A model generated the notes under the pieces. That model ran no database searches and was not told the origin of the DNA. It saw nothing but the letters and a program-made list of their open reading frames with translations. From NCBI GenBank assembly GCA_964016885.1, contig CAXHJY010001737.1, positions 112,046-176,045 of the forward strand: a stretch of DNA of 64,000 nucleotides, written 5' to 3'. The stretch comes from Eledone cirrhosa (lineage: Eukaryota). Positions 1,681-57,137 of this stretch are shown here, one piece after another. How positions within the stretch are numbered: position 1 is the first letter of the stretch; every line of letters starts with the position of its first letter. The translations under genes and the position numbers were made by a program.

Positions 1681-2227
1681 ATGTATGTATGTGTATATGG
1701 ATGTGTATGTATGTGTATGTGTGTACACATGGACTAGAGTATGTATGTATATATGTGTGTGTCTATACGTGTGTATATAAAGATAAGTTGAGTATGAAAA
1801 TGTATACACATGAGCGCGTATGTATGTACATGAATACATGTGTGTATATATATGTGTATGCATGTGTATATATATGTAAGTATGAATATGTGAATTGTGA
1901 GTATATGTATTTGTGTGTGAATGCGTGGGTGAAAGGATACGTACACTTGAAAGAAAAATTTAAGTCTGAATGTTAATTAAGTGCAAACACAAAACCAACC
2001 ACGCATATCTTTACTATCTCTAATCCTTCTATAGATTTAGAAAAATAACCAATAATATATTCTATAAAAAATGTCAAAACAACAGATGGGAATCTAATTA
2101 CTCACTGCCACCAAGAATTCTCACTGCTATCGAAAAACCACTCCACCACTCCTTCAACTATTCCTCTAACAACTTCACCCCTCCCTCCTAATATTCTCTA
2201 TAAAAACTAAATAGGTCCTCAGTAATA

Positions 2228-2347
2228 TTATTCTGATGAAATGACAGTAAATAATAACATTGAAATATTGAATGTCTGCATAACTAAAAGTTTGTAGATA
2301 GCAGCTGTTTTAGGTTATGTAACTGTTATAGAAACACGTGTCAATAA
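2228..2347 (+). ncRNA. Type I hammerhead ribozyme with extended stem II
   Basis: Stem I TTATT/AATAA. CTGATGA at 2233-2239. Stem II base ATGACAGT/ACTGTTAT within a ~90-nt stem II domain. GAAAC-ACGT-GTC at 2331-2342 (palindromic ACACGTGT stem III). Confidence 0.8.
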
Positions 2348-2497
2348 ATTCCTTTCAACTAAACTGTATCCATTCAAATCTTTCTATTTTTCTCCGGATT
2401 ACTTTTGGAACTACAACTGGAACCGTCGAGCAAACTCTACGTGAGCTGATAATCTACTGTATGTAATATTTATATTACAACACAACGGAAAATACTG

Positions 2498-6633: not shown

Positions 6634-6676
6634 ACGTTGCTGACGATAGCTAATAAGCTTGAAACTAGTACAGCGT
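6634..6676 (+). ncRNA. Minimal type I hammerhead ribozyme (family A)
   Basis: ACGTTG-CTGACGA-t-AGCT-aata-AGCT-t-GAAAC-TA-GTA-CAGCGT, with palindromic stem III ACTAGT. Confidence 0.9.
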
Positions 6677-12130: not shown

Positions 12131-12214
12131 TGCTTTTACCGATCGGTTTCACTTCACAAAAGATTGGAGATCCATAGGGACCTCCAATGGAAAAGTTTAG
12201 ATCATCAGAAAGCA
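12131..12214 (-). ncRNA. Type I hammerhead ribozyme (singleton family)
   Basis: Minus strand TGCTTT-CTGATGA-[stem II with hairpin attggaggtcc/ggatctccaat]-GAAAC-CGATCG-GTA-AAAGCA. Stem III is the palindrome ACCGATCGGT; the stem II base pairs weakly. Confidence 0.75.
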
Positions 12215-17556: not shown

Positions 17557-17918
17557 GTATATATATAAACGTTTGTATATGTATAATAAAGCCAAAACAA
17601 TGCAGGTATGGACATAGAATAAAGAATGCAAATGCAAGAGATATTGTTGACAATTAGTCTTTTACCTTAGATTTATTTAAATATATAAATTTATTTTATA
17701 TATATATATATATATATATATGTAGATAAATCTACCAAGAGTTTACGGTAGTGTCCAATCCGTATGAAGAACTCAATGTATTCCGGATATCATGGAAAGA
17801 AGAGATGTAATGAAAAATCACTTTCGGTGAAAGATAAACGGTATACAGAGTCAAGATAAAATATTAAACAAATAATGAATAAAACAATGAAACAGTTCCT
17901 TATATTAAACAAAAAAAG

Positions 17919-18073
17919 TTCATTATTTAACGATCGTTTCTAGGATATATATGTGTTAGAATTGGCATGCATATTCAACAGATCTATGTACAAAATTATA
18001 CAAAATTATACAAACTATCAAGATTAAATATACATACCAAACACACATATACGCCGTCTTCAGAAATAATGAA
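17919..18073 (-). ncRNA. Type I hammerhead with extended stem II (left-arm copy)
   Basis: Reverse complement of 28519-28673. Confidence 0.82.
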
Positions 18074-18710
18074 ATATATTTATTGATAATAACAACAATT
18101 CAAAATTTCAGGTCCGTTTGGGAACAAAATTGACCAATGAAAATACAAAAGGTTTTATGCAGTTTGGTGTGTGTATATACATGTAACTACCCCGTACACA
18201 TATTTATACAAAGATGTATGCTCAACATGCATACGCATGCCAAAAAGATGCATGCAAATACAAAATTTCAAGGTTAATGTCTCTGTAAGTTTATAATGCA
18301 CAGATAAGATGCGTATAAATATGAAATAAGTGTATACACATATTCTCATACTCACACATATCCGTACACTCACACACACGCGCGCGTATATGCATAAACA
18401 TACACATAATTACGAACATACATACACACACACACCCCCACACACATATATATATGTGGATATAATATTATCATAAGCACATGGATATTAATTCACTCAC
18501 ATAAACACTGCCACACACATCTAGATCAAGATACAGAAATTAGGTGGGAGGGGGGGAGAGGTCAGTATTCAACGGTTTGGGCAGACTGCTTATTTATAGA
18601 TGTATCTATAAACTAAGAAATAAAAAATAAAAATTAAAAAGGAAAGAAAAGAAAAAGAAAAAGAAAAAAGAAAAAAGAAATATATCAAGAAAATATATAT
18701 ATATATATAT

Positions 18711-18757
<47 letters not shown>

Positions 18758-19401
18758 CATACACATATACACACATCTACACTTAGAACACACATACACA
18801 CACATATATAAACATATACATATACACACATACACACATATACACACATACATATAAATATATATATATATACATACACACATATATACACATATAATCA
18901 CACATACATATATAGACACACATATATATACACATACACGCACATATACATACACATACATACTTATATACATACAGATATACACATACATACCTATATA
19001 TACACACAAATACATACAGACATACATACATACATACACACAAATACTTACGCATCCATATATCGGTATATACATACAAACACCACTACACTCTCACACA
19101 ACTCAGACATACAAAGAAAAAGGTATATACCTATACACATATACACATACAAATAGAGATACATATACATATATATATATATATACACATATATATATAT
19201 ATATATACATACACATATACACACATATATATACATACACATACATACATGTACACACACATACATATACATACATACACACATATACACATACATATAT
19301 AGTCATACACACACATACACCTACACGAACATACACATACACATATATAAAGATATATATACACACACACACATACACACACACACATATATATAAAATA
19401 A

Positions 19402-19454
<53 letters not shown>

Positions 19455-20069
19455 CACATATACATAGACATATATGTACATACATACACATACATAAATA
19501 CATATACACACACATATATATATATATACACACATAGACACATACATACATACACACACAACATACATACACACACATATATACTCATACATAGACATAG
19601 ATATATATTCATACATACATACGCACTTACATATACTCATATATACAAATACATACGCATCCATATATGCGTATATACATATAAAACCCACTACACTCTC
19701 ACACAACTCAGACATACAAAGAAAAAGGTATATACATATACATATATACACACATTAATAGAGATACATATACACATATATATATATATATATACACATA
19801 CATTTATATATATACACCCACACACACATACAACCACAAACACACATACAAACACACACATACACACATATATACATACATATATATACACACACACAAA
19901 AAGCACACATACACATATATATTTTTACACATATATATACATATATATACATATACACACCCTCACATATACACACATACACATAAGTTATATTATAATA
20001 ATAAATAATATATATATATATATATATATACACATACGAATATAGACATATATACACACATAGATATAC

Positions 20070-20101
<32 letters not shown>

Positions 20102-21101
20102 TCACATATATATGTGCGCACACGTACATATATACACATACACACATATACACATAAACATATACATGTGCATACATGTACATACACACATATACCCACA
20201 TAGATACGAAGATAGACATATATATAGAGAGACATACATATATATACACATATATATATACACATACATACACACATACATATATATATATATATACACA
20301 CACACATACACGCCCACACACATATACACATATACACATATATATATATATACATATACACATATATATACACATGCATATATATACATATATATATATA
20401 TATACACACATATATATACACACAATCTTACATTCTTATTTGCATGCGCATATATGTATTTTTATATTCAGATATAAATACCCAAACATATATACACCTA
20501 CCTACATATATATTCATACATACACGCTTACAAACACAGATGATAATAGTATGGGGGAAAGGGGGGGGGGTTGGAGAAGGGGATTATAGTAAATATATGT
20601 TTCAAGAAACATAGAATATTATCTGTATCTGGATCCCAATATATGTTTTTACATAGTTTCAGTGTTAGGAAATACAAGAAATAAGGCAAAATTATGCATT
20701 TCAAAATAAGTATACCATTAATTATATGTTAACTAAACTAAAGATAGTTAACATATTGATTTCTAAGGTGTAAATTAGTTAGGTTTATAATATTTGAAGC
20801 AGAATTTTGAAGTTAAATAGTAGTAGAGTATTAATTATAGTATAACTAAATTAAAGTTATTAACGTTATGGTATCAATATTAGGAAATGAATTTAGTAAT
20901 AGGGAAAAAACAAATAAAGTATTACATCGATAGTAGAATATAAATTATAGGTTAACTAAATTAAAAATTATATATTAATTTCTATAGTATATGTTAATTA
21001 GGTATATAATAAATAAAACAGATATTGTATTTTATCAATAGCAGAATATAATTATATGCAAATAGAAATCAAAATTAATACATATACATATACATATACA
21101 T

Positions 21102-21164
<63 letters not shown>

Positions 21165-21656
21165 TACATACACATACATATACATACATACATATACATA
21201 TTTTTTCAAAAATTGCAAAGAATATATTAACTAGGTATACATCCAAAACACATCCCATTCTATGATTACATGACACTCTGCAATCCGTCTGTATAAGGAT
21301 ACTAATTTTAAGCCAATTAAATTAAATTTTTAGGTTGACTAAATTTAAAACCAAATTATAAATATATTTCTAAAATGTATATTAATTAGGTCTATAATAC
21401 TAAAAATTATTTCTCTGTCATTGGATACACGATATTTTGTTATATTTTATCTGTAAAGGAATTTTAATAAAAGGTTTAAATAAATTAAAATTAATCTATA
21501 AATTAAATTACTAAGTATATATTAGTAATATTTAAAGGTTTTTCACAATTTATGATTACACAATATTTTATATTCTCATCTGTAGTAGAATTTTAATTAA
21601 ATTAAATTTATAGGTTAACTAACATTTAAATTAAATTAATTTCTAAAATAATGTTA

Positions 21657-23193
21657 TTAATTAGGTTTATAATATTTAAATGTTTTTTTTAGTTTATGAT
21701 TACACGATATAATTAATTCCTGTCGTTTATTTAATAGGATATCCTTAGATTTCATTATTTCAAATAGTTCTTGGGAACATAATCTACATTCATTTCTATT
21801 ATTTTGATAAGGGGTGGCTCTTTTGAGCACACTCCAGGTCAAATCATATTCTATATTCTTATTTTTATAACTATTGATTTTTTCTGCTAGAGATGTTGTA
21901 TTAGCCAGTGCGGCATTTTTAAAACTATGCTTGTGGGTATTAAACCTTGTCTTAAAATTGTTAGAGGTAGCTCCTATATATGAGCAAATAGAATCTTTAG
22001 TTTTAACATTACATTTATAGACTATGTTGTTAACAAGACAATTCCCTTTTAATGGGCAGTTTGCTTTGTTTCTACAGTTACAACCTTTCGTTAATTCTGT
22101 ATTTGAGGAGATATTATGGTTAATTTGATGTACTGGTGGTATACTTATGGTTTTCTTACATTTATATGCATTATAGGCACTTATATTTTGTTTTATGTTA
22201 TTTGTTGTTGAGTATGAGAATTTAACTGTAGACCTATTTAAGATTTGATGGTATTTGTGGTTTGGCGGGAAGTTTTTCTCTAGGATATAAAAAATTTTTT
22301 TAGCAATATTATCCTTAATTTGTAAATTAAATGGAGCATTATACCAAGTAACCCGTCTATTACGGTTTCTATGTTGTTTATTATTTTTATTATTTTTATA
22401 GGTTGTATCGTGATGTTTACTAGGAGGATTAATGTTAATGATCTCACCACAACCATTTTTAGTTATATTTGTAGATTTAGGTGTTTTATCTTTTTTATTA
22501 GGAGTTTTATTATTAATATTTATTAGAGTTGTATGATGAGTAGTTTTTTGAGAGTTACTATATTTTATATTAGAAGATTTGGTATTTTGGGGTATAGTGT
22601 GGGTGGCATTTAGGTGTGTACTTTTCATTTGGTGTTTGTTGGTAATATTAGGTTGTATGCTTTTAGTATTTTTAGTAGAAGGTATATATTCTAATCTATT
22701 TTTGTGGCCACTTCTATCTAGAGCTTCGTTATAGAAGGTCGCATTTTTATCAAATACATCTTGGTTAGAAGAGAGGTTAGAAATTCTAAGTGATATATTA
22801 TATGCAAGGTTTTTAAGGATAGATTTAGGGTGATTAGATTGTGAGTGTATGTAATGTAAGTTTTGGTTTGGTTTATGGTAAGGTTGGTAGATACCCGTAG
22901 CTAAATCTAAAGTTATATCTAGGAAATTTACTACTTTACTTGTTTTTTCAAAAGTAATATGAAGATTATAATAGTCTTTAAGGAAAGTTCTAATATGTTT
23001 TTTGTTTTTTTCAATTTCTGAAAGGCTAAGGTTGTTAGAAAGAAGAAGACAGTCATCACGATATAAACCACCTTTGAGGTGGGGAAAGGAGGCATTTATG
23101 TTGAAAAGGAGAAAGAGGCCCACAAGATCAGTAATTTGGGCGGAATCGCTTGAACCCATAGTAATATCAAATAGATTACTATATGTGTTTCTG
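21657..23193 (-). pseudogene. 5'-truncated PLE ORF (RT C-terminal half, CxCx5C linker, GIY-YIG), uninterrupted frame
   Basis: MGSSDSAQITDLVGL, GLYRDD, VNFLDITL, CNCRNKANCP, IVYKC...YIGATSNNFKTRFNTH, CRLCSQE. Confidence 0.92.
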
Positions 23194-24934
23194 AAAACAC
23201 CTCCCAGGTAATTAACTGGTTTAAAAATATTAGATGTAAATCTTCTGCTTCATTTCTACAATTTGATATAGATAATTACTATTCTTCTATATCACCTATA
23301 CTCCTGAACAAAGCATTGATATTTGCTAAAAATAGATCTAACTTAACTTTGGATGACATTAATATTATTACACATGCTAGACTAACACTTATTGAATTTC
23401 AGAATGAATACTGGACCAGAAACACATATAGTAATCTATTTGATATTACTATGGGTTCAAGCGATTCCGCCCAAATTACTGATCTTGTGGGCCTCTTTCT
23501 CCTTTTCAACATAAATGCCTCCTTTCCCCACCTCAAAGGTGGTTTATATCGTGATGACTGTCTTCTTCTTTCTAACAACCTTAGCCTTTCAGAAATTGAA
23601 AAAAACAAAAAACATATTAGAACTTTCCTTAAAGACTATTATAATCTTCATATTACTTTTGAAAAAACAAGTAAAGTAGTAAATTTCCTAGATATAACTT
23701 TAGATTTAGCTACGGGTATCTACCAACCTTACCATAAACCAAACCAAAACTTACATTACATACACTCACAATCTAATCACCCTAAATCTATCCTTAAAAA
23801 CCTTGCATATAATATATCACTTAGAATTTCTAACCTCTCTTCTAACCAAGATGTATTTGATAAAAATGCGACCTTCTATAACGAAGCTCTAGATAGAAGT
23901 GGCCACAAAAATAGATTAGAATATATACCTTCTACTAAAAATACTAAAAGCATACAACCTAATATTACCAACAAACACCAAATGCCACCCACACTATACC
24001 CCAAAATACCAAATCTTCTAATATAAAATATAGTAACTCTCAAAAAACTACTCATCATACAACTCTAATAAATATTAATAATAAAACTCCTAATAAAAAA
24101 GATAAAACACCTAAATCTACAAATATAACTAAAAATGGTTGTGGTGAGATCATTAACATTAATCCTCCTAGTAAACATCACGATACAACCTATAAAAATA
24201 ATAAAAATAATAAACAACATAGAAACCGTAATAGACGGGTTACTTGGTATAATGCTCCATTTAATTTACAAATTAAGGATAATATTGCTAAAAAATTTTT
24301 TTATATCCTAGAGAAAAACTTCCCGCCAAACCACAAATACCATCAAATCTTAAATAGGTCTACAGTTAAATTCTCATACTCAACAACAAATAACATAAAA
24401 CAAAATATAAGTGCCTATAATGCATATAAATGTAAGAAAACCATAAGTATACCACCAGTACATCAAATTAACCATAATATCTCCTCAAATACAGAATTAA
24501 CGAAAGGTTGTAACTGTAGAAACAAAGCAAACTGCCCATTAAAAGGGAATTGTCTTGTTAACAACATAGTCTATAAATGTAATGTTAAAACTAAAGATTC
24601 TATTTGCTCATATATAGGAGCTACCTCTAACAATTTTAAGACAAGGTTTAATACCCACAAGCATAGTTTTAAAAATGCCGCACTGGCTAATACAACATCT
24701 CTAGCAGAAAAAATCAATAGTTATAAAAATAAGAATATAGAATATGATTTGACCTGGAGTGTGCTCAAAAGAGCCACCCCTTATCAAAATAATAGAAATG
24801 AATGTAGATTATGTTCCCAAGAACTATTTGAAATAATGAAATCTAAGGATATCCTATTAAATAAACGACAGGAATTAATTATATCGTGTAATCATAAACT
24901 AAAAAAAACATTTAAATATTATAAACCTAATTAA
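23193..24934 (+). pseudogene. 5'-truncated, frameshifted PLE ORF (right-arm copy)
   Basis: The spacer reads in frame NTSQVINWF...FLQFDIDNYYSSI (RT motif A). A 19-bp deletion near 23984 relative to the left arm shifts the frame. The C-terminus matches the left arm. Confidence 0.9.
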
Positions 24935-25426
24935 TAACATTATTTTAGAAATTAATTTAATTTAAATGTTAGTTAACCTATAAATTTAATTTAATTAAAA
25001 TTCTACTACAGATGAGAATATAAAATATTGTGTAATCATAAATTGTGAAAAACCTTTAAATATTACTAATATATACTTAGTAATTTAATTTATAGATTAA
25101 TTTTAATTTATTTAAACCTTTTATTAAAATTCCTTTACAGATAAAATATAACAAAATATCGTGTATCCAATGACAGAGAAATAATTTTTAGTATTATAGA
25201 CCTAATTAATATACATTTTAGAAATATATTTATAATTTGGTTTTAAATTTAGTCAACCTAAAAATTTAATTTAATTGGCTTAAAATTAGTATCCTTATAC
25301 AGACGGATTGCAGAGTGTCATGTAATCATAGAATGGGATGTGTTTTGGATGTATACCTAGTTAATATATTCTTTGCAATTTTTGAAAAAATATGTATATG
25401 TATGTATGTATATGTATGTGTATGTA

Positions 25427-25505
<79 letters not shown>

Positions 25506-26500
25506 ATGTATATGTATATGTATATATATTAATTTTGATTTCTATTTGCATATAATTATATTCTGCTATTGATAAAATACAATATCTGTTTTATTTATTA
25601 TATACCTAATTAACATATACTATAGAAATTAATATATAATTTTTAATTTAGTTAACCTATAATTTATATTCTACTACCGATGTAATACTTTATTTGTTTT
25701 TTCCCTATTACTAAATTCATTTCCTAATATTGATACCATAACGTTAATAACTTTAATTTAGTTATACTATAATTAATACTCTACTACTATTTAACTTCAA
25801 AATTCTGCTTCAAATATTATAAACCTAACTAATTTACACCTTAGAAATCAATATGTTAACTATCTTTAGTTTAGTTAACATATAATTAATGGTATACTTA
25901 TTTTGAAATGCATAATTTTGCCTTATTTCTTGTATTTCCTAACACTGAAACTATGTAAAAACATATATTGGGATCCAGATACAGATAATATTCTATGTTT
26001 CTTGAAACATATATTTACTATAATCCCCTTCTCCACCCCCCCCCCTTTCCCCCATACTATTATCATCTGTGTTTGTAAGCGTGTATGTATGAATATATAT
26101 GTAGGTAGGTGTATATATGTTTGGGTATTTATATCTGAATATAAAAATACATATATGCGCATGCAAATAAGAATGTAAGATTGTGTGTATATATATGTGT
26201 GTATATATATATATATGTATATATATGCATGTGTATATATATGTGTATATGTATATATATATATATGTGTATATGTGTATATGTGTGTGGGCGTGTATGT
26301 GTGTGTGTATATATATATATATATATGTGTGTATGTATGTGTATATATATATGTGTATATATATGTATGTCTCTCTATATATATGTCTATCTTCGTATCT
26401 ATGTGGGTATATGTGTGTATGTACATGTATGCACATGTATATGTTTATGTGTATATGTGTGTATGTGTATATATGTACGTGTGCGCACATATATATGTGA

Positions 26501-26536
<36 letters not shown>

Positions 26537-27143
26537 GTATATCTATGTGTGTATATATGTCTATATTCGTATGTGTATATATATATATATATTATTTATT
26601 ATTATAATATAACTTATGTGTATGTGTGTATATGTGAGGGTGTGTATATGTATATATATGTATATATATGTGTAAAAATATATATGTGTATGTGTGCTTT
26701 TTGTGTGTGTGTATATATATGTATGTATATATGTGTGTATGTGTGTGTTTGTATGTGTGTTTGTGGTTGTATGTGTGTGTGGGTGTATATATATAAATGT
26801 ATGTGTATATATATATATATATGTGTATATGTATCTCTATTAATGTGTGTATATATGTATATGTATATACCTTTTTCTTTGTATGTCTGAGTTGTGTGAG
26901 AGTGTAGTGGGTTTTATATGTATATACGCATATATGGATGCGTATGTATTTGTATATATGAGTATATGTAAGTGCGTATGTATGTATGAATATATATCTA
27001 TGTCTATGTATGAGTATATATGTGTGTGTATGTATGTTGTGTGTGTATGTATGTATGTGTCTATGTGTGTATATATATATATATATGTGTGTATATGTAT
27101 GTATGTATGTGTATGTATGTACATATATGTCTATGTATATGTG

Positions 27144-27182
<39 letters not shown>

Positions 27183-27699
27183 TTTTTTTATATATATGTG
27201 TGTGTGTGTATGTGTGTGTGTGTATATATATCTTTATATATGTGTATGTGTATGTTCGTGTAGGTGTATGTGTGTGTATGACTATATATGTATGTGTGTA
27301 TGTGTGTATGTATGTATATGTATGTGTGTGTACATGTATGTATGTGTATGTATATATATGTGTGTATATGTGTATGTATATATATATATATATATATGTG
27401 TATATATATATATATATGTATATGTATCTCTATTTGTATGTGTATATGTGTATAGGTATATACCTTTTTCTTTGTATGTCTGAGTTGTGTGAGAGTGTAG
27501 TGGTGTTTGTATGTATATACCGATATATGGATGCGTAAGTATTTGTGTGTATGTATGTATGTATGTCTGTATGTATTTGTGTGTATATATAGGTATGTAT
27601 GTGTATATCTGTATGTATATAAGTATGTATGTGTATGTATATGTGCGTGTATGTGTATATATATGTGTGTCTATATATGTATGTGTGATTATATGTGTA

Positions 27700-27732
<33 letters not shown>

Positions 27733-27832
27733 TTATATGTATGTGTGTATATGTGTGTATGTGTGTATATGTATATGTTTATATATGTGTGTGTATGTGT
27801 GTTCTAAGTGTAGATGTGTGTATATGTGTATG

Positions 27833-27897
<65 letters not shown>

Positions 27898-28518
27898 TTT
27901 CTTGATATATTTCTTTTTTCTTTTTTCTTTTTCTTTTCTTTCCTTTTTAATTTTTATTTTTTATTTCTTAGTTTATAGATACATCTATAAATAAGCAGTC
28001 TGCCCAAACCGTTGAATACTGACCTCTCCCCCCCTCCCACCTAATTTCTGTATCTTGATCTAGATGTGTGTGGCAGTGTTTATGTGAGTGAATTAATATC
28101 CATGTGCTTATGATAATATTATATCCACATATATATATGTGTGTGGGGGTGTGTGTGTGTATGTATGTTCGTAATTATGTGTATGTTTATGCATATACGC
28201 GCGCGTGTGTGTGAGTGTACGGATATGTGTGAGTATGAGAATATGTGTATACACTTATTTCATATTTATGTGTCTATACGCATCTTATCTGTGCATTATA
28301 AACTTACAGAGACATTAACCTTGAAATTTTGTATTTGCATGCATCTTTTTGGCATGCGTATGCATGTTGAGCATACATCTTTGTATAAATATGTGTACGG
28401 GGTAGTTACATGTATATACACACACCAAACTGCATAAAACCTTTTGTATTTTCATTGGTCAATTTTGTTCCCAAACGGACCTGAAATTTTGAATTGTTGT
28501 TATTATCAATAAATATAT

Positions 28519-28673
28519 TTCATTATTTCTGAAGACGGCGTATATGTGTGTTTGGTATGTATATTTAATCTTGATAGTTTGTATAATTTTGTATAATTTT
28601 GTACATAGATCTGTTGAATATGCATGCCAATTCTAACACATATATATCCTAGAAACGATCGTTAAATAATGAA
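28519..28673 (+). ncRNA. Type I hammerhead with extended stem II (right-arm copy)
   Basis: 10-bp stem I TTCATTATTT/AAATAATGAA. CTGAAGA at 28529-28535. Stem II tatatgtgtgtt/aacacatatata plus ttggtatgtatatt/aatatgcatgccaa. GAAAC-GATC-GTT (palindrome AACGATCGTT). Confidence 0.82.
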
Positions 28674-28891
28674 CTTTTTTTGTTTAATATAAGGAACTGT
28701 TTCATTGTTTTATTCATTATTTGTTTAATATTTTATATATATATATATATAGTCTTGATATATATTCGAGTATTTATTGTTAGCCGGTGTTTACATTACT
28801 GTGATCTTCAAACGTGAAGTCTCACCTGGAGATTGCAATTGCAAGAAAATCGATTAATGAAAATGATGATTCAGTACAAATTTAATATATA

Positions 28892-30909: not shown

Positions 30910-32736
30910 ATGGCGGAAAAGATGGCAGACATGTCTGCCATTAGCTCTGCCACGCCCCCCAAGTCTGAAGAACAAAAAATAATTACAACAAAAGTAGACA
31001 ATGAAACAAACAAAGAAAATGAAAAAACAAATGTTAAGGAAAATGAGCAAACGGAAAACAAACAAACAGAAAATAATACAAATAACAACAGGGCAACTTT
31101 CGCCCAGAAAACAAAACAATCCATTACATACACACCAATTGACCTAACTGCCGCCAGAGAAAAACTGGCCGAAGCAAAGAAACACATTGTTTTGGGGGAG
31201 AACGGAATGTTTTCCATTAACTCCCCCCCAGAATTCAAGAAAGAACAGAGAACACAGTTCTCTTCAGAACTATACTGAACCAGACAAGAAAGCCAGCACA
31301 GCCCAGCCAAATGGAAATAGAGTTAGTCCTAAAAGACTATATGAAGAATATTCTCTTCATACGAAAGGAGCGACTCTATGGCAGCATTTCGGTCCTAACA
31401 AGTGACAAGGAAACGGCGGAGAAGCTTTCCCTAAGCCCACTCTCATCGACAACATACAGCTTCTATCCCTCCTACATGGGTAGAAGAACACAGAGAGTAA
31501 AAGTAAAAACAATGCTGCCCACAATGGACTTCTGGTGGGCTATTGCTGGCTTCATAGACATGGGCGAAGACACAATCCTGTCAATGGGGAAGGCAACTGG
31601 AGATGCGTTCCTGGGAATGGGCCTCGACATACTAGTCCAAATGAGGCCCGAAAGAATAGCACAAATCCCGGATCGCATCTGGCTGGATGACCTTACCCCA
31701 ATAGACATAATTGTAGAGGGGAGAAGACCAGCATGCTATTTATGCATGGAAAGGGGACACGTTAAGGCTAACTGCCCGAAACGTATCCCCCAAAAAGGAC
31801 TATTGCCCACACCCACCACAAACAGTACACCAACACCACCCACCTCCAAAAATACACTAATACCACACACAGCAAACAAAATACAGACACCACCAACCAC
31901 AAACACAACACAAACATCACCACCACCAGCACCAAACACAAGCACGACACAAAAATCACCACCACCAACCACAACACAAACATCACCACCACCATCACCA
32001 ACCACAAGCATGACACAAAAATAACCACCACCACCACAAAACCCATTCCAAACAAATAATAAAAAAAACAGTAACAAATCTACCCCTCCCGCAAAAAAAC
32101 AACAACCACACAACACGTCCCTCCCACCTAGCGCTGAAGAGTTTCCCCCAACTTCTGAAGAAGAAGGAGGAGAAGCCTTCAGACAAGTTAAAAGAAAAAA
32201 AAGAAAACACACACCCAGCACACCACAAATAACCCACACACAAACACCAACTCCAATCAAAAACACCCCACCCTCAACAAACAAAAATAAATCTGCGCCT
32301 CCCCTCTCCGAAACATTGACAGCATCACAAAAAAGACGTTGCAATACACATATATAAATAAAGAAAACAAAAAACTGGTTAAATTAATAAACAATAACCC
32401 TATGGTGCAGACCGAAGGGCCAAACTTTATCTCAACAGAGAACTTCACCCATTTAAAAATGATAAAGGTCCCTCTGGACCTTTATCGTTCCTTAAAAGAA
32501 CAATTTAGACGGGACGTGAGCCCCCCTGTTTAAAACCGTTGAATCGCGTCCTCTTGAAAGATTTCCCCATAACCGCCCCTCTCCCTGACACAACTCCAAA
32601 TACCCCAACCCCACCACACACGTGTACCCCCACACCACCACAAAACATCCCTCCACCCAACACACCTGATGCCATGGAAATTACGCAACCCGGAGAGGTA
32701 AGTGCTTTTCTTTCTTCACTTTCAACACCAAAATAG
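30910..32736 (+). pseudogene. LINE ORF1 (gag-like, CCHC zinc knuckle), disrupted
   Basis: ATG at 30910. CYLCMERGHVKANC knuckle and a Pro/Thr-rich tail. 4-bp deletion near 31243 and a premature stop at 32024 relative to copy 2. Confidence 0.8.
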
Positions 32737-35700
32737 ATCAATTGAGAGTTGGCTGTTTGAACGCGCGTGGCCTGGGCTCAGCTTGGAAGCAAGCAAAGCT
32801 TCTAAGTGACCTCAGGTCACAAAGTATAGATGTGATGGTTGTTTGCGAGAGTCGGATCAGCAGCGTGAGACAGCTGGCGCCCGCCTTCGATGACTTTGAG
32901 ATGCACGCATCTCTCTGTCAACCCGGAGGCGGGGGGGAGTTGCCGTACTGCTGGATCAACGTCTGACTCTCGACGTACAGATTGTTCACTCGGACCCGGG
33001 GAGTCGATTACTGGTGCTGGACGTCGGAGGCGGTGAAGGCGGGGCTTTCAGACTGGTCGGTCTTTATGCTCCCTTCGGGGCGGAAAGAGCCGACTTCTTC
33101 CAGCGTCTGGAGACTTTTCTAGGAACGTCGCGTTCCCTGCTTTTAGTGGGGGACTGGAATGGAATCCTAGATGCGCGTTGGGACTATGCAGGGGCATGTC
33201 CCGATAGAGGGGGGTGTAGCAGCCTCAAGGGGTTACTCGATCGATTCGACCTGGTCGATAGATTTCGACTAGATTGTCCAACTGCGCCAACCTGGACCTG
33301 GGCAAACCGCAGTGGACAATCTAGATCGTACCTAGATAGGTTTTTGGTTAGGAGTAAGGATAGGGACGTATTTAGTTGTCCAGAACTGATCATGGTTGGC
33401 TATTCAGATCACAAATTAGTGACCTGCGTGGTCAACCTTGATAGAACGCATAGACAGGGTCCCGGTTACTGGAAGATGAACTTGTCCTTGCCGACAAAGA
33501 AAGATTACAGAAACCGGATTAGTAGCTTAGTTAAGATGCGGTTGACGGGAGCGATCGTCAACAGTAGGTGGTGGGTATCTCTAAAGAGAGAGATTAGAGT
33601 AAGTTCGATAGGTTACAGTAAGGAACTAGCGACAAATAGAAATAGGAAGGAAAGGGAGTTAACAGATAAACTAGAAGAGGCGATTAGGAGCGGAGACGTA
33701 GCCAGAGTGTTAGCGGCGAGAACGGCGTTGAGCCAGTTCTTTGACGGGAAGCACGAAGGCTGCGTTGTCCGAAGTAAAATACGTGCGTTAGGAAACGAGG
33801 GGACCAAATCTGTTAGCTGGGCCCGCGTGACAGAAGCCAAGAGTGGGATTAAATCCACCATTCGGTCTTTGCGAGACCAGGATGGACGGGTGATCCTTGA
33901 ACCTGAGCGGATGTGCGAGGCCTTTCAAAGGCACTTTGCTCGACTGTTCGGAGGGGGCGGGGGGCCGGACGGGGATGTGGACTTCGGTCCATACCTCGAC
34001 AGTCTACCGCGTCTTTCGAGCGGCGAAGCGGAGTGCTGCGAAAGGCCAATCACAGCCACTGAAATCGGGGAAGCACTCAGCCAATGCAGCAGACGCAAAT
34101 CTCCGGGTCTCGATGGTCTACCATACGAACTTTATTTAGCTATGCCGGTCTTGTTCTCCGAACTCCTCGAGGCTGTCTATTGCAACTGGCAACAGAACGG
34201 GAAAATTCCCTGTTCTGTGACCAAGGGCGTGGTCACGCTAGTGAGGAAGGACGAGAGCAAGGGGGACGACTTAAGTAACTTTAGGCCCATAACTCTGCTG
34301 AATGCAGAGTTACAGATTTTGGCCAAAGTGTTGGCGAAGAGGTTGGCGCTTGTGGTGGGTGGTTTGGTGGGAGACGCGCAGACATGCGCTATCCCGTCCA
34401 GGTCCATTCACGACAACCTCCACCTCATGCGATACATCATAGAGAGGGTTGGCAACGAACCCGGCTTTGGTGGGGCCCTGATCAACTTGGATCAATCTAA
34501 GGCGTTCGATAGGGTCGACCATGGTTACCTGGATGCGGTGCTAGCGGCGGCGGGCTTCGGACCCGTTTTCAGGGGCTGGATTTCTGCCATGCACAGTGGC
34601 AACATCTACTCTAGGATTAAAGTAAACGGCTACCTCTCGGAGCCGTTTCAAATCACCCGGTCCATCAGGCAGGGGTGCCCCCCTCTCCTCCCTTCTGTAC
34701 GTACTGACTCTCGAGCCACTGCTGCGGAAGTTGGAGTTGCTGCGGGGCATACCCCTGGAACCGGGATTGCACAAAGCGGTCTCGGCCTATGCCGACGACG
34801 TAACAGTAATGGTGGCGGACGCCTCGGAAATCGGGGCGATCGCCACCCTACTGGGGGAATACGAAAGGCTGACGGGGGCTAGGCTGAACCAGGACAAGTC
34901 AGTCGGTTTGCAACTCGGAACGTGGAGGGGCAAACCGATGCCGTTAGACGGTGTCGTCGGGCGGTGGACGGAGGGCCCGGTGAAGCTGCTCGGGGTCTGG
35001 TTCGGACCGGACCTCCAGGTGGAGAAGAATTGGGGCGAGGTGACGAGCAGGGTGTTTGCGCTGACCCAGAAGTGGGCCAAGTGCAAACTATCACTGAAAG
35101 GTGGGGCGGAGGTGACGAACGCTGACATAGCGTCCGTCATCTGCTACCGCCTGACCGTTGTGCCTTGCCCCAAGGAAAAGATCACCATCATGGAACGCAT
35201 GCTCTTCCAGTTCCTCTGGAAGAAGCGGCCTCCCATGGTGAGGAGATCCATCTGCTGCCAGAACCCTTCGAAAGGAGGGCTGGGTATGCCGTGGCTGTTG
35301 ATGCGTAGGCACGCATTGAGGCTACGGCATCTACAAGTATTCCTCAACGGTCAGCCGGTGTGGGCCCCGTTTGTGAGGCGAGCCTTCCCACAGCTCGTCT
35401 CGCTCACCGAACTGCAATCCTGTGTGAAGCAAAGACCGAGAAAACTGGGCAACTGGCACACCGAGTGTGCCCAGGCGCTCACGGCTATCTGGCAAGCGGA
35501 CCCGACTATCAGTGGAGAATCCACCTCGACATTCTATAGAGGGTTGGTGGCTAGCAAGGGCGACGACACCCTTGGAGAGTCGCTAGGCATGGAGGAGGAC
35601 GAACTGGCCAGCCTGTTCGGTAGAACTTTCGGCCCGGGACCCATGGACAACTTCCAGAGGTCCCTAGCCTGGCAGTGTTACCGAGGGGCTCTGCCCGTTC

Positions 35701-36170
35701 GAGAAAAGCTCTACAGACACGGGCGCCCGGGCAGGGATCCCGCGAAAAAGATCTGCCCCAGATGCGTGCGCGACGAGGAAACCGTTGCGCATGCACTGGT
35801 ACACTGCCCGGGCGTTGCCGATCTGTGGGGCTACGTCGAACGACTGCTGTCGCGTGTGGCGCCGATTCGATTAACCGCCGAGTCTGTGGTGAACATCAAG
35901 CCGCCTCCTCCCTTCAGAAATGAAGCAGAGGCGGTCTTTCTGTGCGTAATAGCCATGATGAAAGAGGTTGTGTGGTGGACGCGCCTGAAAGGTCTGAGGT
36001 CGGGTGACTTTCTCTCCGGCCATCACCTGGTTTACTTCTTCCGATACCACTTCGGAAGAAGGATCAGGATGGAGAGAGAAGTGCTTGGCCCCAGACAGTT
36101 TTATGAAAGGTGGGTGAAAGAAGCGAGAATGGCCCGTGTAAATGGGCCTTCTCTCTACATTGTTCTGTAG
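32733..36170 (+). pseudogene. LINE ORF2: APE endonuclease, reverse transcriptase and C-terminal zinc finger; frameshifted
   Basis: LNARG, GDWN, SYLDRF, YSDH (APE). PGLDG, FRPITLLN, LDQSKAFDRVDH, IRQGCP, YADD (RT). CPRC...ETVAHALVHC. Frameshifts near 32935 and 34685. Confidence 0.93.
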
Positions 36171-37034
36171 GTGAAGAAGTGAAGAGGAAAGGGGGAGCGC
36201 CTCCTCTCTGGGCTTCCCCCGCGAAAAGAGTTGCACACTTTTCGGGGGTATGTGCAATCCCCAACACGCCCCCTCCCTTTTGAGGACTTTTTATTGTTAT
36301 ATTATTATTGTTATTCCTTTTTTCTTTACTCGATTTATGTAAACTCCCCCACTGTGTAAATGTCCCCTTCTTTTGTGCCCTCGTGGCAAATAAATAGACA
36401 TTTATCTATATTTTTATATCTTGTTATTGCCTCCTCCTTATTGAGGACGCCTTTTTATGTAAATTGTACTTGTCCCACTCTTTGATGCCCTGGTGGCAAA
36501 TAAAAAGAAAGTTATCTATCTATCTATCTATCTATCACCAGAGTATAGGTGAGGAAGATGAAAGATCAAGGGAGCACCCCCTCTCTGTGCTCCTGAGGAG
36601 AAGGGTTGCACACTTTTTTCGGGGGTGTGTGCGACCCCCCAGGGCGCCTCCTCCCTATCGAGGATTTTGTTATTAAATTTATTTTTGTTATATTTTATTT
36701 TATTTTTATATTTTGTTATTGCCTCCTCCTTATTGAGGACGCCTTTTTATGTAAACTCCCCCCATTGTACTTGTCCCACTTTTTGATGCCCTGGTGGCAA
36801 ATAAAAAGAAAGTTATCTATCTATCTATCTTGATAGAGTAAGACACGCTTCACATCGGCTCCGCTATTTCATCGGGATTTACCCTTACTATAGTAAGTAC
36901 CGGATAAATTTTTCAGTGCAACACATTTGGAACACTAACCCCTGTTATTTAGGGAAACATTTTTGCATTTACCCCCTTTTTAGGGGGTAAAATAAATATC
37001 TATTTTTTTGCCGAAAAATTTCTTTCTTGGCAGC

Positions 37035-38857
37035 ATGGCGGAAAAGATGGCAGACATGTCTGCCATTAGTTCTGCCACGCCCCCCAAGTCTGAAGAACAA
37101 AAAATAATTACAACAAAATTAGACAACGAAACAAACAAGGAAAATGAAAAAACAAATGTTAAGGAAAATGAGCAAACGGAAAACAAACAAACAGAAAATA
37201 ATACAAATAACAACAGGGCAACTTTCGCCCAGAAAACAAAACAATCCATAACATACACACCAATTGACTTAACCGCCGCCAGAGAAAAACTGGCCGAAGC
37301 GAAAAAACAAATAGTCTTGGGGGAGAACGGAATGTTTTCCATTAACTCCCCCCCAGAATTCAAGAAAGCCAGAACAGAGAGCACAGTTCTCTTCAGAACT
37401 ATACTGAACCAAACAAGAAAGCCAGCACAGCCCTGCCAAATGGAAATAGAGTTGGTCCTAAAAGACTATATGAAGAATATTCTCTTCATACGAAAGGACC
37501 GACTCTATGGCAGCATTTCGGTCTTAACAAAAGACAAGGAAACGGCGGAGAAGCTTTCCCTAAGCCCACTCTCATCGACAACATACAGCTTCTATCCCTC
37601 CTACATGGGTAGAAGAACACAGAGAGTAAAAGTAAAAACAATGCTGCCCACAATGGACTTCTGGTGGGCTATTGCTGGCTTCATAGACATGGGCGAAGAC
37701 ACAATCCTGTCAATGGGGAAGGCAACTGGAGATGCGTTCCTGGGAATGGGCCTCGACATACTAGTCCAAATGAGGCCCGAAAGAATAGCACAAATCCCGG
37801 ATCGCATCTGGCTGGATGACCTTACCCCAATAGATATAATTGTAGAGGGGAGCATGCTATTTATGCATGGAAAGGGGACACGTTAAGGCTAACTGCCCGA
37901 AACGTATCCCCCAAAAAGGACTATTGCCCACACCCACCACAAACAGTACACCAACACCACCCACCTCCAAAAATACACTAATACCACACACAGCAAACAA
38001 AATACAGACACCACCAACCACAAACACAACACAAACATCACCACCACCAGCACCAAACACAAGCACGACACAAAAATCACCACCACCAACCACAACACAA
38101 ACATCACCACCACCATCACCAACCACAAGCACGACACAAACATTACCACTACCACCACAAAACCCATTCCAAACAAATAATAAAAAAAAACAGTAACAAA
38201 TCTACCCCTCCCGCAAAAAAAACAACCACACAACACGTCCCTCACACCTAGCGCTGAAGAGTTTCCCCCAACTTCTGAAGAAGAAGGAGGAGAAGCCTTC
38301 AGACAAGTTAAAAGAAAAAAAAGAAAACACACACCCAGCACACCACAAATAACCCACACACAAACACCAACTCCAATCAAAAACACCCCACCCTCAACAA
38401 ACAAAAATAAATCTGCGCCTCCCCTCTCCGAAACATTGACAGCATCACAAAAAAAGACGTTGCAATACACATATATAAATAAAGAAAACAAAAAACTGGT
38501 TAAATTAATAAACAATAACCCTATGGTGCAGACCGAAGGGCCAAACTTTATCTCAACAGAGAACTTCACCCATTTAAAAATGATAAAGGTCCTTCTGGAC
38601 CTTTATCGTTCCTTAAAAGAACAATTTAGACGGGACGTGAGCCCCCCTGTTTAAAACCGTTGAATCGCGTCCTCTTGAAAGATTTCCCCATAACCGCCCC
38701 TCTCCCTGACACAACTCCAAATACCCCAACCCCACCACACACGTGTACCCCCACACCACCACAAAACATCCCTCCACCCAACACACCTGATGCCATGGAA
38801 ATTACACAACCCGGAGAGGTAGGTGCTTTTCTTTCTTCACTTTCAACACCAAAATAG
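37035..38857 (+). pseudogene. LINE ORF1, copy 2 (disrupted)
   Basis: Homologous to 30910-32736. A small deletion at ~37850 frameshifts the zinc knuckle. Confidence 0.8.
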
Positions 38858-40376
38858 ATCAATCGAGAGTTGGCTGTTTGAACGCGCGTGGCCTGGGCTC
38901 AGCTTGGAAGCAAGCAAAGCTTCTAAGTGACCTCAGGTCACAAAGTATAGATGTGATGGTTGTTTGCGAGAGTCGGATCAGCAGCGTGAGACAGCTGGCG
39001 CCCGCCTTCGATGACTTTGAGATGCACGCATCTCTCTGTCAACCCGGAGGCGGGGGGGGGGGAGTTGCCGTACTGCTGGATAAACGTCTGACTCTCGACG
39101 TACAGATTGTTCACTCGGACCCGGGGGGTCGATTACTGGTGCTGGACGTCGGAGGCGGTGAAGGCGGGGCTTTCAGACTGGTCGGTCTTTATGCTCCCTT
39201 CGGGGCGGAAAGAGCCGACTTCTTCCAGCGTTTGGAGACTTTTCTAGGAACGTCGCGTTCCCTGCTTTTAGTGGAGGACTGGAATGGAATCCTAGATGCG
39301 CGTTGGGACTATGCAGGGGCATGTCCCGATAGAGGGGGGTGTAGCAGCCTCAAGGGGTTACTCGATCGATTCGACCTGGTCGATAGATTTCGACTAGATT
39401 GTCCAACTGCGCCAACCTGGACCTGGGCAAACCGCAGTGGACAATCTAGATCGTACCTAGATAGGTTTTTGGTTAGGAGTAAGGATAGGGACGTATTTAG
39501 TTGTCCAGAACTGATCATGGTTGGCTATTCAGATCACAAATTAGTGACCTGCGTGGTCAACCTTGATAGAACCCGTTTGTGAGGCGAGCCTTCCCACAGC
39601 TCGTCTCGCTCACCGAACTGCAATCCTGGGTGAAGCAAAGACCGAGAAAACTGGGCAACTGGCACACCGAGTGTGCCCAGGCGCTCACGGCTATCTGGCA
39701 AGCGGACCCGACTATCAGTGGAGAATCCACCTCGACATTCTATAGAGGGTTGGTGGCTAGCAAGGGCGACGACACCCTTGGAGAGTCGCTAGGCATGGAG
39801 GAGGACGAACTGGCCAGCCTGTTCGGTAGAACTTTCGGCCCGGGACCCATGGACAACTTCCAGAGGTCCCTAGCCTGGCAGTGTTACCGAGGGGCTCTGC
39901 CCGTTCGAGAAAAGCTCTACAGACACGGGCGCCCGGGCAGGGATCCCGCGAAAAAGATCTGCCCCAGATGCGTGCGCGACGAGGAAACCGTTGCGCATGC
40001 ACTGGTACACTGCCCGGGCGTTGCCGATCTGTGGGGCTACGTCGAACGACTGCTGTCGCGTGTGGCGCCGATTCGATTAACCGCCGAGTCTGTGGTGAAC
40101 ATCAAGCCGCCTCCTCCCTTCAGAAATGAAGCAGAGGCGGTCTTTCTGTGCGTAATAGCCATGATGAAAGAGGTTGTGTGGTGGACGCGCCTGAAAGGTC
40201 TGAGGTCGGGTGACTTTCTCTCCGGCCATCACCTGGTTTACTTCTTCCGATACCACTTCGGAAGAAGGATCAGGATGGAGAGAGAAGTGCTTGGCCCCAG
40301 ACAGTTTTATGAAAGGTGGGTGAAAGAAGCGAGAATGACCCGTGTAAATGGGCCTTCTCTCTACATTGTTCTGTAG
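38855..40376 (+). pseudogene. LINE ORF2, copy 2: endonuclease joined out of frame to the C-terminal region, RT deleted
   Basis: ORFs 38878-39582 (APE) and 39579-40376 (zinc-finger region). Confidence 0.88.
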
Positions 40377-55657: not shown

Positions 55658-56143
55658 CCTCAGCATTCTCGTGTAGCACCCATCCACCATCTGAGTGAGT
55701 TTCTTGGTCAGTGTCCTAGTCTCAGACCCATACAGCAGCACAGACTCCACTACAGCAATGAAGAGGCGGATTATTCAGGTCTTTACGAAGGTCCGACTTC
55801 CACACCGATCTCAAGCTGTGGCACTGAACATTAATCAGTATACAATGAGGATGAAAAACTCAGAGCTGTATGGGAGCCCCCCAAAAGTCAGCTCAAAAGT
55901 GACACAGAGGAGACTGAGGTTAGCTGGACAAGCTCACCGACATCCAGAGTTGACATTGCACTCAGTGCTCCTTTGGGAGCCCCTACATGGACACACTAGA
56001 AGAGGAAGACCAAGGTTAACGTATGTTGATGCCCTAAGGACAGACACTGGTCTGTTGGAGACGCAGGACATGGCAGCGATAATGAGGGACAGAGACCGCT
56101 GGAGAGAACTCGTCCATGGATCTCGGGAATTTTACCCGCCTTA
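55658..56143 (+). pseudogene. RTE-clade LINE 3' fragment with inverted 5' segment
   Basis: 55819-56143 is nearly identical to 48583-48907. The minus strand of 55658-55818 encodes the adjacent upstream peptide IRLFIAVVESVLLYGSETRTLTKK...DGCYTRMLR. Confidence 0.82.
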
Positions 56144-56164
56144 GAATATATATATATATATATA

Positions 56165-57137
56165 GTTTTGCGAGGTTTTTTATATGAAATCGTGTGTCGA
56201 AACAAATATTGTTATACTTGGGGAGGGTCATATTTGTCATATTTGTGTAATATTGCCAGAATTAATAACAGAACACACTCACTGTTTGGTTGTAAAACTA
56301 GAAGCGTAGTCTATAGCATAAGATGTACAGAGGGTACTTGCAGAAACATGACAACAACATACATAGGGGAGACAGCTCGTAGTATAGGTGAAAGGATAGA
56401 CCAACACTGGGGGGAACTAAAAGGACGAAAAAACGGGTCAGTACTATACGAACATGCTAGACAACAACATGACGGTAACATAGACAACATAGAAATTAGA
56501 ATAATATCTAAACATAGAAATGACGCAGCAGATAGGCAAATCAGAGAGGCCAGTGAAATAGAAATTAGAAGACCACGACTAAACAGAAAGAATGAATGGA
56601 ATAACAACAACACCCAAACAAACAACACTGACCTAAGAGAAGTATAAATAAGTAAATAAAATAAAATAAATAAATAAATAAATACATACACAAGCACAAT
56701 AACAACAAGCACATAAACACACACTAGTCACCCATCGCACAGGAAACAAAACACTATACACACACGCAAACGCATGCGCAAAGAAGACAAAATAAAATAA
56801 ACAAAACAAGCAAATAAATAAATAAATATATAGACAGACTGAATAAAAATGGCGTAGACATACAATACAACAGGAGGAAAAGATAGCACCACTGACGATG
56901 TTGGATGTGCAACGAAAGATTTATGATAAACTATATATATGTGTTTGCGTCTATATTGTATCTGTATTATTTTTGACCGTCGGTCAGTCAATGGCAACAT
57001 TGAGGACCGAGTAAGTTAGATTACCGATATAAAAGACACAGAAGCGAGAAGCGAAAACCAACCAAACAGTGAGTGTGTTCTGTTATTAATTCTGGCAATA
57101 TTACACAAATATGACAAATATGACCCTCCCCAAGTAT

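Follow-up and report, generated by a model that had tools for sequence, protein, structure and literature searches.

Hammerhead ribozymes of Penelope-like elements

To our knowledge, the hammerhead ribozymes of Penelope-like elements (PLEs) are held to be minimal. A core that works across a long insertion was reportedly found in 2008 by Martick et al. in the discontinuous hammerhead of rodent Clec2, said to be of type III, to sit in the 3' UTR of its host and to carry the insertion within stem I; it is not a covarying stem II hairpin of a retroelement, as is the motif described here.

The hammerheads of Hydra-clade PLEs (Craig et al. 2021, PMC8557442) resemble our motif in being of type I, in lying near the 3' end, in having a GUU, GUA or GUC site, and in carrying an extra base on each side of stem II and a short, palindrome-like stem III. 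In that paper the clade is defined by the motifs RWK, DKT and CxCx5C, with CxxC and CxH beside conserved E and N; the elements share with ours RWK-like, DKT, CxCx5C, CxxC and CxH motifs and (TA)n targets. However, the two core halves are at most about 26 nt apart in the published Hydra rows (n=26), whereas here they are separated by 116 nt that include a conserved apex, and the published units are shorter than about 3 kb with a tail of 30-40 bp, against about 6.65 kb and 133 nt here. The metazoan PLE hammerheads described by Cervera and De la Pena (2014, PMC4209133) are similar in their location in terminal repeats, predicted dimer dependence, a U3-A8 core variant (in Cercyon) and a base inserted after A9, but their helix II has 6-8 bp and their stem I 2-5 bp (10 bp here), and the G10.1-C11.1 pair conserved there is absent here, a C.A mismatch taking its place. 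The Anolis Poseidon element PAc (Frangieh et al. 2024, PMC11167929) likewise has, in its genomic copies, short and tailed 3' ends following an intact hammerhead; it belongs to another clade, its ORF starts inside stem II, in contrast to an ATG 360 nt past the cut in our element, and no long arm is described in the parts of that report drawn on here. The longest stem II spans tabulated in File S2 of PMC8557442, about 50 nt in two plant rows of Selaginella PLE-X1 that are marked as non-canonical, reach about half of the 116 nt and come from EN-minus plant elements, in a table that gives no covariation. Within the literature covered we found no report matching an extended or long-insert stem II; papers or supplements outside that coverage could show such variants.

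The parent element

The window, i.e., the whole stretch of DNA that was analysed, comprises 64,000 nt of the Eledone cirrhosa assembly GCA_964016885.1 (contig CAXHJY010001737.1, positions 112,046 to 176,045). The repeats of this genome seem similar in composition to those of coleoid cephalopods. Two 5'-truncated copies of one element meet in it head to head at 23193 (Table 1). Read from its sequence, the parent is a young Hydra-clade Penelope-like retrotransposon, and the attribution of the hammerhead to a PLE, already made in an earlier note on this DNA, stands, as the motif is tied to an 813-aa Hydra-type ORF. An RT-like YRDD motif and a C-terminal YIG motif can be read in the translation, together with the Hydra motifs RWR, DKT, CxCx5C (CNCRNKANC), CxxC (CRLC) and CxH (CNH); RWK itself is present in family H (see below). 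Because a Pfam search with the 813-aa ORF gave no hit, the assignment to reverse transcriptase and GIY-YIG-like domains rests on these motifs. Targeting of (TA)n, tandem and inverted 5'-truncated copies and a tail at one end are all present.

Table 1. Features of the hammerhead motif and its parent element in the window (positions are those of the window)
Feature	Position	Strand	Basis or remark
Stem I, 5' strand	28519..28528	+	10 bp with 28664-28673; read from sequence
Left catalytic core CUGAAGA (C3-U4-G5-A6-A7-G8-A9)	28529..28535	+	sequence
Extended stem II, 116 nt between core halves	28536..28651	+	fold z -7.65
Apical motif, halves 28573-28583 and 28602-28611 around a variable loop	28573..28611	+	91-100% identity in subfamilies A-D
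Right core GAAA (G12-A13-A14-A15.1)	28652..28655	+	sequence
Palindromic stem III, 8 nt, C-GAUC-G-U pattern	28655..28662	+	sequence; self-duplex -10.0 kcal/mol
H17 (U28663) of the GUU site, predicted cleavage directly after it	28663	+	sequence
3' strand of stem I, then 63 nt leading to the short 3' end and (TA)n	28664..28736	+	sequence; genomic copies
Mirror hammerhead in left arm, identical to 28519-28673	17919..18073	-	sequence comparison
Left arm, 5'-truncated, from ORF base 906	17723..23193	-	ORF open to stop at 21657
Right arm, 5'-truncated, from ORF base 682	23193..28736	+	19-nt deletion near 23979; ORF stop 24934
Tail of left arm (long 3' end), 133 nt	17723..17855	-	equals start of next unit in tandem arrays
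Second long-stem-II hammerhead, family H 3' end	2223..2350	+	91-nt span, different 8-nt palindrome, GUC site

The distances given in the earlier note are borne out by the arm boundaries: the motif starts 3,585 nt past the ORF stop (about 3.6 kb had been stated) and lies 63 nt before the right arm end (about 65 nt), and the sequence of its mirror copy in the left arm is identical. In total, the right arm continues for about 3.8 kb of microsatellite-rich sequence after its ORF stop, of which the part before the motif (24935-28518, + strand, about 3.6 kb) is an unusually long microsatellite-filled 3' region inside a mobile unit. Two other features of the window may be mentioned here. Two tandem, frameshifted L1-like elements with a zinc-knuckle ORF1 and an endonuclease-RT ORF2 occupy 31221-40376 (+), and a remnant that resembles, by motif and with no hit in Pfam, a GIY-YIG end from a different Penelope-like clade lies at 56030-56647 (+).

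Among 30 identical genomic copies, 14 stop at the short 3' end in (TA)n-like sequence, while the other 16 extend through the 133-nt tail, which was mapped via its flanks in genomic copies, before (TA)n or similar sequence follows. Full copies elsewhere have an intact 813-aa ORF and form arrays of about 6.65-kb units with the order hammerhead, 63 nt, tail, next ATG. Since the array places the hammerhead between ORFs, the motif marks the boundary between units. The position at the 3' end of the element, as the earlier note had it, is thus correct but only half of the picture, for in arrays the predicted cut is also found 360 nt upstream of the next ATG. In one head-to-tail array of five such units (L061-L064, G000:C6:49522001-49562000) the four comparable ORFs differ from each other at 0-2 of 2,442 bases, and at 5-12 from four other copies. 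Such near-identical units fit copying from a circle, but local duplication as well.

Anatomy and fold of the motif

The cores CUGANGA and GAAA and the NUH triplet that characterize a type I hammerhead are present as CUGAAGA, GAAA and GUU, at the very places given in the earlier note for stem I, CUGAAGA and GAAAC-GAUC-GUU. Three helices surround the core with stem I open, and stem III has only 2 bp in the monomer. Folding, which the note had proposed as a check, gives -48.4 kcal/mol for a 166-nt stretch with the motif (z -6.33, equalled by 0 of 200 shuffles), and the part between the core halves reaches z -7.65 when folded alone. In stem I, nine of ten pairs have a pair probability of 0.86-0.99. 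At its base, stem II has a C.A mismatch, 2 bp and a C.C mismatch. A helix of 12 bp follows (28540-28551 paired to 28636-28647), then another (28554-28565 paired to 28617-28628, plus adjoining pairs), and the apical domain tops the stem. The long stem II is therefore confirmed by its fold, but where two helices had been described we find four stacked helical segments on a 2-bp base. No consistent pairing or pseudoknot was found between the apical loop and the flanks. The motif does not have the Schistosoma Sm-alpha form, in which the G10.1-C11.1 pair is present and the loop of a 4-bp stem II touches stem I, as it combines the C.A mismatch with a stem II of 116 nt.

In the monomer, the lowest-energy fold hides the core, and the active fold lies 3.2 kcal/mol above it. 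None of the eight Rfam matches in 28300-28800 up to E=10 is a hammerhead, in agreement with the expectation that standard searches would miss the motif, and the best 150 of 383 Rfam matches in the whole window likewise include no hammerhead.

Not every trait that the earlier note singled out as unusual is so. File S2 of PMC8557442 shows that a mini stem III of palindromic sequence, a mismatch at the first pair and a GUU site are the family norm: stems III of this kind are normal among the published Hydra-clade hammerheads, stem II is flanked by one additional base per side in many Hydra rows, and U occupies H17 in 10 of the 26 rows. What is new here is only the 116-nt stem II, in place of the roughly 20 nt that are usual, whereas position, palindrome, mismatch and GUU are already known in Hydra hammerheads.

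Abundance, subfamilies and covariation

A pattern of the cores with a 95-125-nt spacer matches 10,829 times in the genome, compared to a single match of the reversed control. Pattern searches defined the subfamilies A, B, B2, C and D, each tied to a Hydra ORF. The stem II span is mostly 113-116 nt in subfamily A, to which the window copies belong, 97-108 nt in B and B2, 103 nt in C and 103-112 nt in D. The ORFs share 80-88% (B), 65-83% (B2), 61-70% (C) and 59-73% (D) identity with those of A, and identity between endonuclease domains falls to 58% across subfamilies. In trees that covered the families of this genome and unnamed database proteins, the ORFs of A-D form one clade (support 100/99).

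Covariation was counted in alignment A4, which holds 33 sequences from 29 chosen loci (E<=1e-9), with families E, F, H and f808 outside the pair counts; its predecessor A3 was dropped as it contained antisense and microsatellite matches. Sequencing runs from organisms B, C, D, E, H and I contributed motif pieces only, with no contig spanning the stretch, and were kept outside the covariation. In A4, fitted to a structure model from A/B, 93.3% of the cells pair, in comparison to 22-55% in controls slid out of register. Two-sided changes occur in 21 of 44 pairs, among them 7/10 in the basal helix and 4/10 in stem I; these are counts of sequences, not of events, and stand for about three independent lineages (A/B, C, D). 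Both stem III pairs are invariant in all 33 sequences, themselves largely chosen by this motif. The second pair of stem II is G-C in 13, G-U in 12 and A-U in 7 sequences, and this variation, along with the two-sided changes of the basal helix, fixes the register of stem II with its C.A mismatch, two pairs, C.C mismatch and long helix.

The core itself shows a compensatory change. In subfamily D, U3-A8 replaces C3-G8 (1,224 matches versus 13 in the control), and at locus L259 the U3-A8 motif flanks a Hydra ORF on both ends. The swap indicates selection on the catalytic core. Arm chimeras provide a further comparison that needs no alignment and agrees partly: the 5' arm of A pairs with its own 3' arm at -36 kcal/mol, but with the 3' arms of C or D at only -7 to -18 kcal/mol. 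The separation is unclean between C and D, where the C 5' arm with D 3' arms (-15 to -20 kcal/mol) comes near to native values. Single copies fold less uniformly. Seven of 17 single representatives, mostly old copies, had z above -2 (before family E was re-folded at -3.7 to -5.7), and folds are weak in places among single copies of D, F and H, e.g., z -0.38 in the H copy L343.

Structure-preserving variation, which the earlier note had suggested looking for among family copies, is thus found in stem I, stem II and the 3-8 core pair. The two-sided pairs, the U3-A8 swap and the fixed apex together show that the long stem II exists and has been maintained through changes that preserve its structure. 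It is well supported that stem II is a conserved RNA structure, and we are largely confident that the long stem is under selection as RNA. With similar confidence, the U3-A8 swap and the published family lead us to regard the motif as a probable catalyst.

The same core data bear on the idea that the motif no longer cuts in vivo and has become a structural landmark near the two start sites of reverse transcription. A core kept through deep divergence, including the compensatory swap, would hardly be expected of such a landmark, nor would the variation of H17 among U, A and C, although most copies were chosen with patterns requiring H. What a landmark would account for is that the motif is intact in all inserted copies, that the monomer is predicted to misfold, and that the Anolis RNA-seq, as given in PMC11167929, has no reads ending at the cut site. 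We consider it the least probable of the explanations weighed here.

Long stems in other families

The hammerhead with a long stem II proposed in the earlier note is present, but it is no one-off, as such stems occur in at least two Hydra-family lineages of this genome. The second hammerhead of this kind in the window (Table 1) belongs to family H, with 2,985 genomic matches against one in the control. The Hydra element of family H is 42% identical to the window element, and its stem II of about 88-93 nt is unrelated in sequence. In f808, the sister of H, all seven loci have an 81-nt stem II. The tree unites A with D (100/100) and H with f808 (100/100), whereas the union of both groups receives 50/28, or 86 in a quick tree, values that neither establish nor refute one common origin for all the long stems.

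Two families have long stems outside this frame. Family E (L279:356-458, - strand, and many loci in L279-L298) has a three-way branched stem II of 95-97 nt (z -3.7 to -5.7), the left arm of which differs in sequence between subfamilies while pairing is retained. No ORF could be tied to it; the ORFs "Eq" and "Eq2", considered as parents, have no link to family E. Family F is an older, heterogeneous set with spans of 101-105 nt.

Short stems II occur as well: 13-23 nt in f713, f832, f850 and f818/826, and 31 nt in a hammerhead with an ORF in L293. Motifs of 12 nt (f808) and 31 nt (f713) that were initially candidates turned out to be unrelated neighbours, the true stems II having 81 and 13 nt. 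The core sequence also varies between families, as f808 (L344) and f832 (L355) carry CCGAAGA at their 3' ends and f713 (L350) carries CAGAAGA, both being variants of position 4 and each fixed across the copies seen. Elsewhere in the window, hammerhead cores with stem II spans of 51, 38 and 36 nt lie at 12208 (-), 46869 (+) and 58035 (+), and four copies of a minimal hammerhead with a 14-nt span at 6640, 7062, 11055 and 12864 (+).

Conservation of the apex and origin of the hairpin

The 21-nt apical motif is far more conserved than the stalk and flanks, which are 45-78% identical in A-D. The 91-100% identity of the apex was measured with a pattern requiring the motif; listings compiled by means of nothing but the cores show it too. 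Its conserved halves are exactly the strands that pair in the RNA, around a loop of 3-18 variable nt, a pattern difficult to reconcile with the suggestion that the apex acts in DNA as part of an internal promoter, or that the hairpin is a small-RNA precursor and the ribozyme merely tolerates it. PLE terminal repeats do carry a promoter (PMC6765202), the next ATG follows the motif at a distance of about 400 nt, and the hairpin has a length like that of a pre-miRNA; yet in Rfam only a chance-level antisense miRNA match (E 6.9) was obtained, and we judge this explanation to be very unlikely.

It is also conceivable that a single fold-back duplication lengthened loop II and that the hairpin has since been carried along without function, template switching keeping its arms complementary. 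Copying of one strand from the other would, however, erase the C.A and C.C mismatches, the G-U pairs and the asymmetry of the apical loop, all of which persist. The stalk consists largely of (UA/UG)n, and the element is rich in microsatellites, but its length stays within 35-42 nt per side in A-D, below an apex much better conserved than its flanks, and families H and f808 have unrelated long stems. The family does constantly make inverted copies, and deletion derivatives with shorter stem II spans exist (664 matches, 24 in the control), but those listed are scattered, differ from one another and form no family. We regard such a functionless origin as quite unlikely.

The apex is not common to families H, f808, E and F, so that each lineage would need its own motif. 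An invariant apex on a stalk of fixed length but variable sequence is what one would expect where a protein binds, and by analogy a helper protein may be proposed. That the hairpin serves as a platform for a protein is a tentative suggestion, with a probability slightly below even.

A-to-G changes in the hairpin

Eight sequencing runs were compared, two of which, X5 and X1, stem from different samples of the same organism (A); the type of X5 is not recorded. On the sense strand, X5 differs at ten places, seven of them A>G, with no T>C among the ten. Five of the A>G sites lie in the hairpin, at 28568 (41%), 28630 (34%), 28644 (19%), 28651 (18%) and 28655 (21%), percentages that refer to contig depths in one run of eight; the same sites do not exceed 0.02% of depth in X1. 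Only 17 and 24 genome copies have G at the core sites 28651 and 28655, compared to 10,829 family matches, and none of 33 A-family copies has G at any of the five sites. The confinement of the changes to the hairpin (5 of 49 A, versus 0 of 48 downstream) is borderline (p 0.056). The 5' neighbour is A or U at each of the seven sites. The A at 28651 lies next to G12 and forms the C.A mismatch, within a UAG opposite C, and 28655 is the core residue A15.1. We take this context to fit the preferences of ADAR, acting on the sense-strand hairpin. The five sites are probably due to ADAR editing, which would thereby reach the core residue A15.1. Editing of repeat-derived helices is ordinary in animals.

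One could go further and suppose that the long helix is kept in order to recruit ADAR, and that editing at A28651 and A15.1 sets the cleavage rate, the former turning the C.A mismatch into a C-I pair. The near absence of the five sites from X1, the scarcity of genomic G copies, the sequence context and the at least tenfold loss of activity upon changes at 15.1/16.1 reported in PMC3088659 would be in line with such a gate. Against it weigh that X5 is not recorded as RNA and is a sample other than X1, that other subfamilies have different bases where the fold with a helical A15.1 needs them, and that the sequence-conserved apex would be left unexplained; the borderline confinement, the origin of the percentages and the commonness of repeat-helix editing reduce its appeal further. 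A natural ribozyme tuned by editing, of which a single animal genome would hold over fifteen thousand copies, is conceivable, but we hold it to be unlikely. In the literature covered, no report of edited natural hammerheads was found, and the sole directly relevant one concerns an engineered design.

Proposed function

We favour the interpretation, with a probability of roughly 0.55, that the motif is a terminal-repeat type I hammerhead with a conserved 116-nt hairpin, in which cleavage is predicted between tandem units and the hairpin may serve as a dock for protein. Cleavage of read-through RNA after U28663 would separate the tandem units. It would be slow in a single molecule and improve once a second copy is bound via the palindrome. 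The hairpin would present the apical motif for docking by the protein that the element itself encodes. Assistance by dimerization or by a protein is what we infer from other PLE hammerheads. These have low, dimer-dependent activity according to PMC4209133 and PMC6765202, and the Anolis Poseidon hammerhead is described as cleaving only with its protein (PMC11167929). The predicted burial of the core and self-pairing of the palindrome fit the dimer dependence and low rates of PLE hammerheads.

Inserted copies retain the complete motif and extend 73 or 206 nt past the predicted cut. The template of reverse transcription must therefore have stayed uncut at this site or have been re-ligated, which in turn calls for a ribozyme that is slow or regulated. 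Under the favoured interpretation, A-to-I editing would, in the hairpin, be a consequence of the long helix in its host and may damp cleavage further, given the at least tenfold cost of changes at 15.1/16.1. Against this interpretation weighs that knockout of the Anolis ribozyme is reported to have had no effect on insertion in vitro (PMC11167929). In PMC8557442 the role of PLE hammerheads is treated as open, with the possibility that they are parasites of the element.

Implications

The core-only searches described in PMC8557442 used a 7-17-nt spacer, and the Naiads, there said to lack hammerheads, have "half cores" 35-50 nt apart. Searches with such a spacer cannot see long-stem motifs, so that elements such as the Naiads merit a renewed search. 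Should the A>G changes reflect editing, the catalytic core of a ribozyme is reached by a host enzyme. That a lineage has gained and kept an arm of 80-116 nt, the stalk of which covaries while the apex is fixed, speaks for selection at the RNA level, and its separable parts (core, palindrome, stalk and apex) are testable in a young family with intact 813-aa ORFs.
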